Source: a virus (Duplodnaviria > Heunggongvirae > Uroviricota > Caudoviricetes). From it: 13,009 bases of DNA. This document shows positions 6,348-13,009 of this stretch, piece after piece. The notes under the pieces were generated by a model. It worked only from the letters and a program-made list of their open reading frames with translations. It did not search any database and was not told the origin of the DNA. How positions within the stretch are numbered: position 1 is the stretch's first letter; the number at the start of each line of letters is the position of its first letter. Made by a program: the position numbers and the translations under genes. Location of the stretch: IMG/VR virus record IMGVR_UViG_2619619134_000011. One strand, written 5' to 3'.

Positions 6348-7505
6348 TTAATCGTCGTCCTGTGGCAGTTCCAGAATCTTGATCGCGTTCGAATCCACCA
6401 CGCCACCGCCTAAATATTTCTGCGTGAAAATTTTGATGAAGCCCGGCTCTGTGAGGTTGTCCGGTCTGGTGCGAACACCTGTTTCGTGATCAACAATGTA
6501 GTAACCGCGTTTGAAGTCACCCAGGGCAATAACGTTATCAGGCATAAACTCCAGATATTCGACCGGAAGGCCCAGCAACGTATCAGGATCACCCGCCTGT
6601 AAACGGTCGCGCCAGATGTAATCACCGTTCGCGTTCTTCACCTTCTGAAGTTTTGCCGCCGTCGTGGAGTTAACCACCCAGACCGCGTTTTTGCGGTATT
6701 TTTTACGTAATGCAAATTTCAGATCGATCAGCGGGTCCGCAGATGTCCACGCCAGAGATTCGGAAGGTTTAATTACCTGCAACGTACCAAAATCACGCTC
6801 TTTGTCGTTCTTCTCTGCACGGGGTACGGATAAAAAACCTTTTGCTTTTTTGTCACCGTCGCCCACAACCAGATCGCTTTCTTCGGTTTCCGTGAAGGTG
6901 TCGCCAATCTCACCCGTCAGCCATGAAAGGATGTCCACATCGGAAAAATCCACGATTTCCTGTGTGGTGCGCGGGTACGCATAGACCGGATACAGCTTAA
7001 TGCTCACCTCGTTAATCTGCGGGGTGCTGGTCTGTTCGCGTGTCTTACCCTCTTCACCGTGGTTAACGGTCGCACCGCCAGCGGAAACAAGCTGCTTAAA
7101 CTCGTTGCTGCTGATTTTCTTCACGGTACAGATGCGGCGCATGGTGGATTCATCCGTCAGCATTCGCATGATTTCGGTGTTCAGTTCGGGGATAACGGTA
7201 TAACCACCATCAGCGGGAACGCCTGTACTTAATGCGCGGGTTTCACCTGTCAGAATGTAGTTGCGTAGTTCTGCGGGGTCAGTGGTCTGGCTGCTTTTAC
7301 CTGGCTTGCTGCGCTCTTCGTCTGCAATGGCTTCAAGGCGGGAAATGTCTTTATCGAGGGATTCAGCTTTAGCGCGTAATTCGTCAAATTTTGCGCCCTC
7401 AGCATCGTTAAGACTGCGGTTTTCTTTTTCCGCGTTCTCCAGCATGTCGCGCATCTGATTTTTAATGGCGGTTTTCTGCTGGCGTAATTCGATTATTCTC
7501 GGCAT
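6348..7505 (-). CDS. Major capsid protein (HK97 fold) with N-terminal scaffold-like domain
   Basis: The track ORF starts at a GTG (7553); I prefer the in-frame ATG at 7505, which has AGGA 8 nt upstream, giving 385 aa. The first ~100 residues are coiled-coil-like and E/K/L-rich, consistent with a fused delta domain and with no separate scaffold gene. Confidence 0.85.
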   Translation of the reverse strand: MPRIIELRQQKTAIKNQMRDMLENAEKENRSLNDAEGAKFDELRAKAESLDKDISRLEAIADEERSKPGKSSQTTDPAELRNYILTGETRALSTGVPADGGYTVIPELNTEIMRMLTDESTMRRICTVKKISSNEFKQLVSAGGATVNHGEEGKTREQTSTPQINEVSIKLYPVYAYPRTTQEIVDFSDVDILSWLTGEIGDTFTETEESDLVVGDGDKKAKGFLSVPRAEKNDKERDFGTLQVIKPSESLAWTSADPLIDLKFALRKKYRKNAVWVVNSTTAAKLQKVKNANGDYIWRDRLQAGDPDTLLGLPVEYLEFMPDNVIALGDFKRGYYIVDHETGVRTRPDNLTEPGFIKIFTQKYLGGGVVDSNAIKILELPQDDD

Positions 7506-7724
7506 AAAAAAAGTCCTGGGGTTAAGTAAGGAACTCCAGGACGCGGCAAACACTCAACCGTTTTTCATAAGGAAATCAGTAATCGCACCGATCGTTTTCC
7601 CGCCTGGTAATGAATATTGGCGAGCACATTAACAGGCGGGAAAATGGCCCCAGCGTCCTGGCACCACGGGCGAGAATAATCATGATTCAGGTCGGGTAAA
7701 ATATGCCGTTCCGGTCAGCGAGCA

Positions 7725-7746
7725 ACGTGGAACAACCACGAACAAA
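7725..7746. promoter_or_regulatory. Inverted repeat and 17-bp repeat in the leader of the packaging operon
   Basis: CGTGGAACAACCACG (7725-7739) is a 5-bp-arm inverted repeat. GAACAACCACGAACAAA (7730-7746) is identical to 215-231. It lies between the upstream terminator and the capsid gene, where the packaging promoter must sit. I could not place -35/-10 hexamers confidently. Confidence 0.35.
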
Positions 7747-7754
7747 TAATTTAC

Positions 7755-7786
7755 AAAACATGACAAAAAGCCGGATTGCTCCGGCT
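7755..7786 (-). terminator. Rho-independent terminator ending the replication-side operon
   Basis: On the minus strand AGCCGGA-GCAA-UCCGGCU (7-bp stem, 4-nt loop) is followed by UUUUGUCAUGUUUUG, immediately after the stop of the 7793-8107 gene. Confidence 0.6.
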
Positions 7787-7792
7787 GTGTGA

Positions 7793-8107
7793 TTATCTGT
7801 CCTGGTAATTTCGCCATATTTCATCGCTTACACCATCTATACCCATTTCAGCATAAGTGCGATCTACTGCCTTTCTCAGGTCTCCGAAGTTATCCGGCGG
7901 CTCCGGTGGCTTCTGTGCCTTCCTGGAACATTCCAGCCGTCGCATCGTAACCTGATGCCGTTCCTTGTCTGTCTCCACCAGCAGCATGACTTCACCCCAT
8001 CGCGCCGACGCCCTCCGGTAAAAGCCTTTCGCCTCGAGTTCTTCCGCTATGCGGTCATGTACCATCGCCACCCCCTCAGAACGGAATACCGTCACCGTAA
8101 GGGTCAT
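7793..8107 (-). CDS. Small regulatory protein, PerC-like (tentative)
   Basis: Track ORF 7793-8185 trimmed to the ATG at 8107 (104 aa) so that it overlaps the SSB stop only modestly. The segment AEELEAKGFYRRASARWGEVM ... DKERHQV.MRR matches my recollection of the PerC/Pch family. Not verified by search. Confidence 0.4.
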   Translation of the reverse strand: MTLTVTVFRSEGVAMVHDRIAEELEAKGFYRRASARWGEVMLLVETDKERHQVTMRRLECSRKAQKPPEPPDNFGDLRKAVDRTYAEMGIDGVSDEIWRNYQDR

Positions 8108-8486
8108 CGCCTCCCGCTGGTGGCTGATTACCCTGTGTGCCTGTGGTTTTGCGTCTGTTCCCGCCAGGACGTGCCGCACGGGCACTGATTACGCTGTCTG
8201 CAATAACCTGATAACCCTGCCGCGTTTCCCCGTTCTGTCCCGTCCACTGGCTGACCTGCATCGTGCCGGATACGCTGGCAACGTCGCCTTTTTGATGTTT
8301 AGCCAGGAAGTCGGCCTGCTTACCAAATGCGATGACCGATAGCCATAACGTCGCCTGCCCATCCTGCGCCTGACTACATGGCAACGATACCGCCATACGC
8401 GCCAGCGTCATCGGTGTGCCCTTACTGGTCTGTTTTACCTGCGGGTCGTCCACCAGCCGCCCGTAAGCCGCTATCTGTGCTGTCAT
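8076..8486 (-). CDS. ssb: Single-stranded DNA-binding protein
   Basis: 136 aa, alignable by eye to E. coli SSB (WLSVIAFGKQADFLAKHQKGDVASVSGTMQVSQWTGQNGETRQGY versus [44 protein letters not shown]), with a Gly/Pro-rich linker and the acidic C-terminal tip DDPYGDGIPF (compare DDDIPF). Confidence 0.8.
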   Translation of the reverse strand: MTAQIAAYGRLVDDPQVKQTSKGTPMTLARMAVSLPCSQAQDGQATLWLSVIAFGKQADFLAKHQKGDVASVSGTMQVSQWTGQNGETRQGYQVIADSVISARAARPGGNRRKTTGTQGNQPPAGGDDPYGDGIPF

Positions 8487-8761
8487 GATTCCACCTCTCC
8501 GGTTTTAACGTTGATGGTTGTTACCTGTTCCGCTTCGGCAATCTCCCGTTCTGTCAGCGTGGCAAAGTTTGCCGCCGCCGTGGTCATGAATGCGCTTATC
8601 AGTTCGGGATGTGCTTTCGCGTATCCTTCCCCCGCGTGGCGGTCTATCGTTCTGATTGCCACCTTTAAAGCGTGCTCTGTCATGTCTAACGCGCGATATT
8701 TCGGTTCTGTTCTGTCTCTGCGTTTTTTGAGTGATTTATTAAATTTCCCTGAAGCGTGCAT
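8483..8761 (-). CDS. Hypothetical protein (92 aa) between origin and ssb
   Basis: ORF with a GAGGGGG Shine-Dalgarno about 10 nt upstream of the ATG at 8761; its stop overlaps the ssb start. No recognised motif. Confidence 0.5.
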   Translation of the reverse strand: MHASGKFNKSLKKRRDRTEPKYRALDMTEHALKVAIRTIDRHAGEGYAKAHPELISAFMTTAAANFATLTEREIAEAEQVTTINVKTGEVES

Positions 8762-8810
8762 ATTTATTTTTACCCCCTCGTTTAAAAAGTTTTGAGTTGT
8801 GCCTCCCCTT

Positions 8811-9036
8811 GTCTACCTTATCTACCTTACTGGCTCTCATGCCAGTAATGGCGCGGCTTTCAGCGGGGTAGAGTGCTTTTATCCACTATCTACCCCGTAT
8901 CTACCTCCCTGTCTGATTCAGGTAAAATCAGGTAGAGAGGGTAGATAGTAGGTAGACAGTGAAAAAAGGCTGTCTACCTAAGTTAATATACTGAATTAAA
9001 TGTATTTTTCTTTACTCAGGTAGACAGGGTAGACAG
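8811..9036. repeat. Iteron array: putative replication origin
   Basis: Eleven copies of the hexamer GGTAGA/TCTACC in both orientations (TCTACC at 8812, 8821, 8889, 8900, 8973; GGTAGA at 8867, 8931, 8940, 8951, 9019, 9028), several extended to GGTAGACAG, flanking an AT-rich segment (8981-9017). Immediately downstream of the primase/helicase gene. Confidence 0.7.
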
Positions 9037-9049
9037 CCATTGCAAAAAA

Positions 9050-10804
9050 TTATAAAAACGCGTCGCAATCGTCTGTTGTTATTGCGTTAGTCTGCGTTAC
9101 TCCCTTAACTTTCCGCGTAATATATTCATGTCCGTAAACTTTCGCGGCTGGCTTCATAGCCTTGCCAAAGTCATTTACGTTTAGCGGTTTGCTCCTGCCT
9201 GCGTACGCCATAAACGCCAGATAGACGCGGTAAAGGCTGTTTCTGGTCGTGTACTTCACTGAATCGCCACCGCCGCCCATCATCAGGCCGCGTGCTTCCT
9301 CCAGAAAATTCAGGAACTGGCAAAACTCAATAACCGGATCCGTCTGTTGCTTTATTGCCAGTGCTTCATCACCGTCACGCTGTTCAATGAGTAAAGCCCG
9401 TGCCTTTTCAGGGTCGGCAAAGTTCGCCAGCAAGCGGCGGATAATCACAGGGATTTCAGCCGCGATCTTTTCCGGTAGCTCCCTGTCTTTTTCTGCCTCG
9501 CTTACGATGTTATCGAACCGGAATATCACCCGACGACGTGCCACACCTCCGGCCCGTTCGGTGAATATCATCGGATTGTTATTGGTTGCCAGCACCACCG
9601 CCCTGATTACCGCCGTAAAACGCTTTTCATATTTCGGGTTAATTTCCACGGGGTCGCCGCCCGTGATTTTCTTGATGCCCGTTCCTTCGCCTGTATATTT
9701 CGGCTGGTCTGCCAGGACGATAAGACGACTCCCGACAACCTGCGCACGCCCACCAGCATCATCAAGCGATGTCATTTCAGCGCTTACCGTGTTCTGTTTC
9801 CCTGCCAGAAGGCTGGCTATGTGTGTGAATGTACTTTTACCGCTCCCGCCGTCTCCGGTGGCCTCAATAAACATCTGCCAGTCGTACCGGTTCGCCATAA
9901 TCATGTACAGCGCGGCACATATACGCATCATCTTGCGCGGGTCTTTTCCGGCTGCGTGCTCAAGCCATTTATGAAAGTTTGGCGCGTTATCGCGGATGTT
10001 CTCCCCTGGTGCTGGTGGCGTGTACTCAATGCCGTTGTGCGTGGTGATCCAGTTCTCCGGCGTGTGCGGGGAAAATTCCCCCGTTTTCAGGTCAAGCGCA
10101 CCATTGGCGAACGGCAGCAAATCGCCGGACGGCTCGCCCATTGGTTCGGCAATAACTTTTAACGCTTCCACGGCGTTATTGATTACGCGCTTGCTGAAAG
10201 TGGCCCTGTGCTCTGAATAGATCGCCACCATTTCGCGGCTAAGTTCCATTGTGCTGACCGGACACCATACCCCGCCGCGCCATACGTGAACGATTTCACT
10301 TTCAGGATGTACGCAAACGCCATCAAAGCGATCGGCAAGCAGCTGCGCGCGCTCACTGTCCGCCATCTGCGAAAGTTGCGCCTTTTGCTTTACCGGAAGC
10401 TCAATGACCAGACCATCAGAAAGATTCTGGCGCTCACGGGCCAGATATTCGCGCCAGTTCTCCACCTTCTGACCGTGCATACCCTCAGGATAAAAATTTG
10501 CATCCTGTACGCCTGCCGCCGCCAGCTTCTGGCCAATCGCCTTTATCATTACTGGCGCAAGATATCCGGCCCTGAATATGCGCACGGATTTTCTGCCTTC
10601 CGGCACAATTTGCAGCTTATCCAGTTCTGATAACTGCTGCTCCCCAAGCCACACAGGAGGCTCATTATCTCCGGCCATACGCGCATCATGTTCCTGCCAT
10701 TGTTTCGCGTGTGCCCAGGCATCACTACCCGCAAAAATAATGACTTCTGTTCCTTTGTGTTTTATGCCGCGTGACTGCTGTTTTACGTTCGGTGCCAGTT
10801 TCAT
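9050..10804 (-). CDS. DNA primase/helicase (P4 alpha-like, D5/SF3 NTPase)
   Basis: 584 aa with Walker A GDGGSGKST and a following hydrophobic-D Walker B-like segment (RLIVLAD). Its start overlaps the upstream ORF stop as ATGA. Typical satellite replication gene next to its origin. Confidence 0.8.
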   Translation of the reverse strand: MKLAPNVKQQSRGIKHKGTEVIIFAGSDAWAHAKQWQEHDARMAGDNEPPVWLGEQQLSELDKLQIVPEGRKSVRIFRAGYLAPVMIKAIGQKLAAAGVQDANFYPEGMHGQKVENWREYLARERQNLSDGLVIELPVKQKAQLSQMADSERAQLLADRFDGVCVHPESEIVHVWRGGVWCPVSTMELSREMVAIYSEHRATFSKRVINNAVEALKVIAEPMGEPSGDLLPFANGALDLKTGEFSPHTPENWITTHNGIEYTPPAPGENIRDNAPNFHKWLEHAAGKDPRKMMRICAALYMIMANRYDWQMFIEATGDGGSGKSTFTHIASLLAGKQNTVSAEMTSLDDAGGRAQVVGSRLIVLADQPKYTGEGTGIKKITGGDPVEINPKYEKRFTAVIRAVVLATNNNPMIFTERAGGVARRRVIFRFDNIVSEAEKDRELPEKIAAEIPVIIRRLLANFADPEKARALLIEQRDGDEALAIKQQTDPVIEFCQFLNFLEEARGLMMGGGGDSVKYTTRNSLYRVYLAFMAYAGRSKPLNVNDFGKAMKPAAKVYGHEYITRKVKGVTQTNAITTDDCDAFL

Positions 10805-11100
10805 TTTTTACCCCTGAATCCTTTAATCATGGTTTTCATCTTCTGAATATTGGCGCGTGCTTTCTCCCTGCTGGTGGGCACGTTACGCGGTACGGCCTGC
10901 ACAAGAGAAAAATCACGGTCGAACTGATAAACAGGCATCACGCAATCATATTCGTAACCTTCACGGCGGTAAGTTACGCACCGTCCCGCCACGCCCTTAA
11001 TCATTACCGTGCCGCCGTACTGGTCGCGGTAAATATCACCGCGCGTAAATTTAGGGTGAGTGTTGCCACTGGCAGTTAAGCCAGAATATTTAAGTTTCAT
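10801..11100 (-). CDS. Hypothetical protein (99 aa)
   Basis: ORF with GGAG upstream of the ATG, translationally coupled to primase. Basic C-terminus. No recognised motif. Confidence 0.5.
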   Translation of the reverse strand: MKLKYSGLTASGNTHPKFTRGDIYRDQYGGTVMIKGVAGRCVTYRREGYEYDCVMPVYQFDRDFSLVQAVPRNVPTSREKARANIQKMKTMIKGFRGKK

Positions 11101-12478: not shown

Positions 12479-12661
12479 ATGCAAGAAAAAAATGAGAAAC
12501 CAAAATTTGATCGCTCTGGCAGCACAAAGAAAAACATCCGCTTCGAAGACACATTGTTGCAACAAATTAACGAAGTTGCTGGGCCTGGTAATTTCAGTTC
12601 ATGGGTTAAAAATGCCTGTCGTGACAAGCTACGCAAAGAAGGCATAGAACCAAAAGGCTGA
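12479..12661 (+). CDS. Small DNA-binding regulator, ribbon-helix-helix-like (60 aa)
   Basis: The only convincing plus-strand gene. The pattern basic N-terminus, KKNIRFEDTLLQQINEVAG, G.NFSSWVKNACRDKL fits a beta-strand plus two-helix RHH fold as I recall it. GGTGG lies 9 nt upstream of the ATG; a terminator follows. Confidence 0.5.
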   Translation: MQEKNEKPKFDRSGSTKKNIRFEDTLLQQINEVAGPGNFSSWVKNACRDKLRKEGIEPKG

Positions 12662-12799: not shown

Positions 12800-13009
12800 T
12801 TACACTGCCTTACCTGAATTAATGCGATCCCGGCTTTTAACCCATTCCATAACCTCGGACAGCAGCCACCCTACAGAACGACCGCCCAGATTAAGACGTG
12901 ACGGAAAGCGCCCTTTTTTCTCCAGTTCGTAACGTGTAGTGCGGCACACTCCAGTTAACTTACGACATTCATCCTCACGGATTACGCGATCTTCATTTAT
13001 TTCACGCAT
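12800..13009 (-). CDS. alpA: AlpA-family transcriptional regulator / excisionase-like protein
   Basis: 69 aa with the HTH segment CRKLTGVCRTTRYELEKKGRFPSRLNLGGRSVGWLLSEVMEWV, characteristic of AlpA-family proteins. The ATG is the last three bases of the window, so the upstream region (and any integrase) is outside it. Confidence 0.8.
   Translation of the reverse strand: MREINEDRVIREDECRKLTGVCRTTRYELEKKGRFPSRLNLGGRSVGWLLSEVMEWVKSRDRINSGKAV

Follow-up and report, generated by a model that had tools for sequence, protein, structure and literature searches.

PerC, the founding member of its family, is an 89-aa protein encoded in the perABC operon of the EPEC EAF plasmid (pMAR2), and it activates LEE1. 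PchA, PchB and PchC (group 1) belong to the same Pfam family and are encoded by horizontally transferred genes of EHEC lambdoid prophages, where pchA-type genes are located after the lysis genes. PchA displaces H-NS, StpA and Hha and activates LEE1 solely through relief of their silencing (PMC4764244). According to the passage of PMC6265319 that cites Iyoda & Watanabe (2004), pchA/B/C are needed for ler and espA expression and for adherence, while pchD (group 2) and pchE (group 3) are dispensable there. PchE, also called PerC3, is encoded by the O157:H7 element known as Sp7, OI-51, CP-933C or EcCIEDL933, and it is listed as a gene of OI-51/Sp7 in PMC3378721. Its reported phenotypes come mostly from plasmid over-expression, which lowered csgD and curli, biofilm formation, eae, lpfA1, stpA and adhesion to HEp-2 cells, raised flhDC, fliC and motility, and increased ler more than 2-fold, the sole LEE-positive sign (PMC7369912). 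Expression of pchE is low and steady without induction and falls on SOS induction (PMC6265319, PMC7369912).

PerC-family genes have also been described on satellites. PerC variants were noted in some E. coli PICIs by Fillol-Salom et al. (2018), where some PICI-coded PerC homologues activate the LEE (PMC6092414), and a 2026 survey places perC among PICI accessory genes. In C. rodentium, LEE1-lux is strongly silenced by EcCIMP1_025, a satellite-borne PerC-family protein that E. coli MP1 carries on the PICI EcCIMP1 (PMC11773190). In the statement for which Pick et al. (PMC11773190) cite Porter (2005), the PerC-like genes of EcCIEDL933 and EcCICFT073 are given as having no effect on LEE1-lacZ. Under the definition of Alqurainy et al. 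(bioRxiv 10.1101/2022.09.08.507074), capsid-forming PICIs (cf-PICIs) carry alpA, a primase or rep gene and their own head and packaging genes in about 10–15 kb, with no tail or lysis genes.

We analysed a stretch of 13,009 nt (the window), which on its gene content is a capsid-forming PICI. Pfam matches identified AlpA, a primase, SSB, capsid, protease, portal, connectors, HNH, TerS and TerL, and no tail or lysis genes were found among the window ORFs; the satellite assumed as carrier in the original prediction was borne out, its head and packaging module being complete. All real window genes are on the minus strand, save one small plus-strand ORF of the YlcI/YnfO type. Following the minus strand, alpA at the window end (12800–13009) is followed by small ORFs, a gene for a 99-aa DUF4222 protein (10801–11100), a D5_N/DUF5906 primase gene (9050–10804), an iteron-rich intergenic region with GTCTACC/GGTAGAC repeats (8762–9049), orf92 (8483–8761), ssb (8076–8486; 136 aa, Pfam SSB 4.2e-17) and the PerC-type gene. 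Beyond an intrinsic terminator lie the genes for an HK97-type capsid protein (6348–7505), the prohead protease, portal, head closure, connector, HNH and P27-type TerS proteins, and TerL (1163–2824), all likewise on the minus strand. The closest full-length relative is inserted between clpS and cspD, with an integrase gene just beyond the window's extent. Of 5426 complete E. coli genomes, 123 had a near-identical element covering at least 80% of the window. The head genes of the window are close to those of the prototype EcCIEDL933, which in EDL933 lies between roxA and phoQ and carries a 90-aa PerC-family gene after ssb.

Two further observations concern the gene map itself. The capsid ORF as called mechanically (6348–7553, minus strand) starts at a GTG at 7553 and gives 401 aa, while the start that is conserved and annotated in RefSeq is the ATG at 7505 (MPRIIELRQQ, 385 aa). 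The sole convincing plus-strand gene (12479–12661) encodes a 60-aa DUF3950 protein of the YlcI/YnfO family and is found amid Icd-like fragments near alpA.

The minus strand from 7793 to 8107 holds an uninterrupted ORF including its stop codon, with a first ATG that gives 104 aa, and the open frame continues as far as a GTG at 8185, for 130 aa. The ORF proposed originally, for which no strand had been named, is therefore intact and lies on the minus strand. Its most likely start is the ATG at 8065, giving a CDS of 7793–8065 and a product of 90 rather than 104 aa, since the Pfam PF06069 profile begins exactly at Met15 of the longer form, which corresponds to this ATG, and since a Shine–Dalgarno-like GAGGGGG, read directly from the sequence at 8071–8077 (minus strand), sits 5 nt upstream of it. 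The ssb stop codon occupies 8076–8078, so that the 104-aa form, which would overlap ssb by 32 nt, is disfavoured. In addition, the shorter start is favoured because a 90-aa product is annotated by RefSeq in every related genome looked at, and because MMC-J-0020 carries a 2-nt indel between the two ATGs that puts the upstream one out of frame while the 90-aa frame is kept. The in-frame upstream extension of 14 codons (8066–8107, minus strand), which overlaps the 3′ end of ssb and falls outside the Pfam profile, is thus probably not translated as part of the protein. Pairwise dN/dS among five alleles of the gene ranged from 0.23 to 0.34 and all five were intact at 90 aa, which fits a functional gene.

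Profile searches confirmed, far beyond chance, that the product belongs to the PerC family, as its resemblance to PerC/Pch-type proteins had suggested. The match to Pfam PF06069 had an E value of 1.2e-44 and 150.9 bits against a gathering cut-off of 22.6, with profile positions 1–89 of 90 aligned to residues 15–103 of the 104-aa form. The best PHROG was phrog_994 (1.4e-45), annotated as unknown function, and weaker PHROG matches were labelled transcriptional activator. In an alignment of 59 PerC sequences, A19 was invariant and A7, L10, E11, G14, R17, R18, R22, W23, C46 and G75 were conserved in at least 90%; the window protein holds all of these residues, and it shares the N-terminal LExKGxYRRAAxRW motif with PchA/B/C. 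It also has the size and predicted fold of a family described as small (about 85–105 aa) and all-alpha, with 90 aa and five predicted helices. The family is itself small, as an exhaustive search retrieved 98 cluster representatives at E ≤0.001, while a word-indexed homologue search retrieved close relatives only. Members of the ANR (Aar-type, AraC negative regulator) family are likewise small helical regulators of Gram-negative pathogens, and we rejected membership in it, since the match to NCBIfam ANR_neg_reg (NF033650; E=0.0084) reached 15.9 bits, below the cut-off of 32.

Within the family, the window protein was 87/89 identical (E=3e-67) to ECs_1588 of O157 Sakai, which is also 90 aa long, is named "transcriptional regulator PchE" in RefSeq and lies within "prophage Sp7; untypable"; it was 87/89 identical also to the PerC-family protein of EcCIEDL933. 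Three substitutions, A20S, P88Q and S90R, separate the window allele from O157 PchE. The order primase, orf, ssb, pchE and head genes is common to the window, EDL933 and Sakai, and orf-ssb-pchE is kept in these as well as in MMC-J-0020, WP7 and O157 Anguil. On this identity and shared gene order, we identify the window gene as a pchE allele, pchE being the 'group 3' perC homologue. The O157 gene resides on the same kind of mobile element and has the same neighbours, with orf, ssb, pchE, a terminator and then the HK97-type capsid, protease, portal, connectors, HNH, TerS and TerL. The two elements differ in their primases (584 aa and D5_N/DUF5906 in the window, DUF927 type in EcCIEDL933), in their integration sites (clpS/cspD, as judged from the closest full-length relative, versus roxA/phoQ), and in a 74-aa gene, ECs1589, that EcCIEDL933 carries between pchE and the capsid gene and the window lacks.

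The pchE gene is the last of an orf92-ssb-pchE unit located between the probable replication origin of the satellite and an intrinsic terminator. A terminator scan placed a hairpin, AGCCGGAGCAATCCGGCT, followed by TTTTT at 7769–7786 on the minus strand, 7 nt past the pchE stop codon, which marks where the unit ends; this terminator is kept in EDL933 and MMC-J-0020, and in EDL933 it is doubled around the extra gene. In O157, 5′ RACE defined a polycistronic ECs1586-ECs1587-pchE RNA starting 10 nt upstream of ECs1586 (PMC7369912), ECs1587 being the ssb homologue, and co-transcription is known for O157 only. The first gene of the window unit, orf92, had no Pfam match and its product was 73/81 identical to ECs1586, so that the O157 polycistron matches the orf92-ssb-pchE layout. 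On the O157 model, the promoter of the unit would lie in the 8762–9049 region. Alignment of the O157 pchE promoter region with the window showed unrelated origin and promoter sequences, and the O157 start site is therefore not transferable; a sigma-70 promoter scan of 7300–9200 found no minus-strand promoter. The terminator scan found no minus-strand terminator between the primase gene and pchE, and AlpA-driven transcription after helper infection could therefore enter pchE.

The origin assignment rests on the segment 8790–9040 (minus strand) after the primase gene, which is AT-rich (GC 0.42), packed with GTCTACC/GGTAGAC iterons and is probably where the satellite replicates from. The origin iterons of Sakai Sp7/EcCIEDL933 differ from these; Sakai Sp7, with its other primase, has the unrelated iterons TAACCCGC at the same place.

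The leader of the capsid gene (7506–7768, minus strand) is near-invariant among E. coli and Shigella elements, although pchE varies. Its RNA folds much better than shuffled sequence (z = -4.75, 0/100 shuffles), and it contains a 12-bp perfect inverted repeat, TTTTCCCGCCTG...CAGGCGGGAAAA, as well as a terminator-like hairpin, GTCCTGG...CCAGGAC, followed by T7 right before the ATG; this hairpin would mask the AGGA ribosome-binding site. Each element has a single copy of the motif TTTTGTAAATTATT, which is exact also in Rosenbergiella and near-identical in Citrobacter and Erwinia. An Rfam scan of the whole window matched no family. From these features, the leader may be a control point of the packaging operon, by antitermination or by translational control. 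In EcCIEDL933/Sp7 (EDL933, L004:37483-37880) the interval between pchE and the capsid gene holds the extra gene of approximately 390 bp, ECs1589, flanked by two copies of the terminator, CAGCCGGAG(A/C)AATCCGGCTTTTT, the counterpart region of the window being 7745–7792 (minus strand); MMC-J-0020 and the window lack an ECs1589-type gene and have a single terminator copy. In the cf-PICIs of Shigella, Rosenbergiella, Citrobacter and Gilliamella, the gene next to the capsid gene on its upstream side is a homologue of ECs1589. The ECs1589-type gene seems to be ancestral, with a wider conservation than pchE, and in the window it was probably lost by recombination between the terminator repeats.

We gathered relatives of the satellite through their capsid protein and searched them for perC-type genes, using an HMM made from PerC, Pch and PchE-type sequences. 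No homologue was detected by this HMM in the cf-PICIs of Rosenbergiella, Citrobacter amalonaticus, Erwinia psidii and Gilliamella, the capsids of which are 66–74% identical to that of the window. In Shigella flexneri SFBU1023 (L006:9173-9334), where the cf-PICI capsid is 98% identical to the window's, a deletion has fused ssb, of which the first 24 codons remain, to the C-terminal part of perC; either ssb and perC are dispensable for maintenance of this element, or the element is decaying. We therefore rejected PchE as a core cf-PICI gene, as four related cf-PICIs lack it and a fifth has lost it by deletion. Because relatives without perC still keep the sequence before the capsid gene, we regard pchE, on comparative grounds, as accessory cargo and not as a regulator of the packaging operon. 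Among E. coli the gene is widespread: DNA like pchE was found in 720 of 5426 complete genomes, which also speaks for a working gene, and the window-type capsid gene in 361.

The gene is also found on a satellite of a different make. In some O157:H7 strains, such as 7.1_Anguil (L018:2760-14503), another satellite replaces EcCIEDL933 at roxA/phoQ; its helicase is of the RepA type, its major capsid is a different one accompanied by a decoration protein, and its terminase is IS-disrupted, yet it carries the same orf-ssb-pchE-ECs1589 cassette, with 92.7% nucleotide identity in pchE. Since the cassette occurs together with other replication and head genes, orf-ssb-pchE appears to travel among PICI-type elements, which suggests modular exchange among them.

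Two readings would give PchE a larger part, either in the life of the satellite or in the virulence of its host. PchE might activate or anti-silence the head and packaging operon of the satellite itself, the start of which is 287 bp downstream. The position of pchE immediately upstream of that operon, the terminator after it, owing to which the packaging genes may need separate control, and the conserved and strongly structured leader would all agree with such a part, as would the recurrence of the cassette in the other E. coli satellite with its different replication and head modules. Against it, the cf-PICIs of four other genera do without a PerC homologue, and three of these four keep the leader motif TTTTGTAAATT before the capsid gene, although the exact 14-mer is present only in Rosenbergiella; moreover, the Shigella element has pchE deleted, in EcCIEDL933 pchE and the capsid gene are set apart by a further gene and another terminator, and the cf-PICI study (bioRxiv 10.1101/2022.09.08.507074) credits AlpA with induction and lists the packaging module without pchE. 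We consider control of the packaging operon by PchE very unlikely. The reading that had been proposed for the gene, in which the protein acts like EPEC PerC or PchA/B/C and turns on ler, so that satellite induction leads to more type III secretion, fared no better. It can draw on the shared Pfam family, on the LEE activation by some PICI-coded PerC homologues (PMC6092414), on the rise of ler under pchE over-expression, and on read-through from AlpA-driven transcription, which could raise the level of pchE on induction given that no intervening terminator was detected. However, the window protein is only 39–40% identical to the activators, against 98% to PchE, and has neither the close sequence nor the basic C-terminal part of the PerC/Pch LEE activators: the PchA-type protein (39% identical) has 104 aa with a basic C-terminal tail, a charge of +13 and a pI of 10.3, and EPEC PerC (40% identical, plasmid-borne) has +9 and 9.8, while the window protein has −1 and 6.1. 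In the cited accounts groups 2 and 3 are given as not needed for ler/espA expression or adherence, PchE as not required for LEE expression and the EcCIEDL933 homologue as without LEE1-lacZ effect; pchE represses eae and adhesion, its expression drops on SOS induction, and EcCIMP1_025, the satellite-borne homologue encoded at the far end of a satellite without capsid genes and 53% identical over 76 aa, silences LEE1. Many carriers of the gene are UPEC or canine E. coli isolates, and the UPEC pathotype is usually without the LEE. An induced cell would also soon be lysed by the helper phage. Hence the PerC family and its location on a satellite stood, while the assignment to the LEE-activating type is not supported; the fall of pchE on SOS induction in O157 and the reports of PchE as non-activating speak against the suggested coupling of satellite induction to LEE expression, and of all the readings this one seems to us the least probable.

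If the satellite touches the LEE at all, a better candidate than pchE is the DUF4222 gene (10801–11100, minus strand) directly upstream of the primase gene. Its product is 79/99 identical to Sakai ECs1581, which is RgdR, and keeps the RGD motif; RgdR is a regulator of OI-51 that activates LEE1 and affects motility (PMC3378721).

Returning to the reading that we prefer, we hold it probable that the window gene is a pchE allele carried as accessory cargo on an E. coli capsid-forming PICI, the product of which is not a LEE activator and would take part in anti-silencing of H-NS/StpA. By analogy with the 98%-identical O157 protein, pchE would be expressed weakly but steadily for as long as the satellite is quiescent. 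When abundant, PchE would shift master regulators, with csgD, stpA, eae and lpfA1 going down, flhDC and fliC going up and ler rising approximately 2-fold, and cells would give up adhesion and biofilm growth for motility. We infer that PchE, like PchA, would remodel silencing complexes of the H-NS/StpA type, or the proteins that partner them, at different promoters, such as csgD, flhDC and stpA; the link to H-NS is carried over from PchA, which is 39% identical. The AlphaFold model of the window protein (pLDDT 85.3, five helices) resembled only generic TPR/MIT-type helical hairpins in structure comparison, with no HTH or winged-helix match, and a PDB profile search with the 59-sequence family alignment found no solved relative, the best hit being ribosomal protein S3 (E=0.76). 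The PerC family is strongly basic, with a pI of at least 9 in 47 of 59 members and a median of 9.85, while the PchE clade (P0004, P0010, P0014 and P0031; 61–88% identical to the window protein) is near-neutral to acidic, with a pI of 5.9–6.8. A further relative (P0020), 72% identical to the window protein, is still basic. The near-neutral pI of PchE as compared with the basic PchA and PerC argues against an identical mechanism of competition for DNA. Charge as a predictor of activator or repressor function was rejected, as the LEE-silencing EcCIMP1_025 is basic (pI 9.6).

These properties also bear on whether PchE, without binding DNA, sequesters an AraC-type activator or H-NS/StpA as a putative partner, in the manner of Aar/ANR anti-activators. 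The weak ANR_neg_reg match, the predicted small helical-hairpin structure without a DNA-binding fold, the loss of the family-typical positive charge in the PchE clade and the mostly repressive effects reported for PchE are compatible with such a mode of action, which Pick et al. (PMC11773190) propose for the LEE1-repressing EcCIMP1_025. Yet the match, at 15.9 bits against a cut-off of 32, is that of a non-member, PchA did not co-precipitate H-NS (an unpublished observation cited in PMC4764244), and EcCIMP1_025 is repressive in spite of its basic charge, which is thus no guide to the mode of action. We consider this sequestration unlikely; it overlaps with the partner step proposed above for PchE and does not exclude the preferred reading. 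A bolder extension, which we rate as decidedly improbable, is that PchE-type proteins form a charge-neutralised branch of the family acting through a protein partner instead of by competing with H-NS for DNA, and that the PICI and cf-PICI satellites of E. coli, among them those of LEE-negative UPEC and commensals, use PchE while quiescent to shift the host from an adhesive to a motile state. If this were true, the motile shift could bring the satellite into contact with helper phages and new hosts more often.

Both the gene and its occurrence on satellites of this class are already known from the literature and from RefSeq annotation: pchE of Sp7/OI-51/EcCIEDL933 was named and first tested in 2004–2005 and was characterised in 2018–2020. 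The importance of the finding is slight beyond correct annotation, and it lies in a caution for the family, that a match to the Pfam 'PerC transcriptional activator' on a satellite does not equal a LEE activator, as the satellite-borne members tested had either no LEE effect, in the cited accounts of PchE, or silenced the LEE, in the case of EcCIMP1_025.
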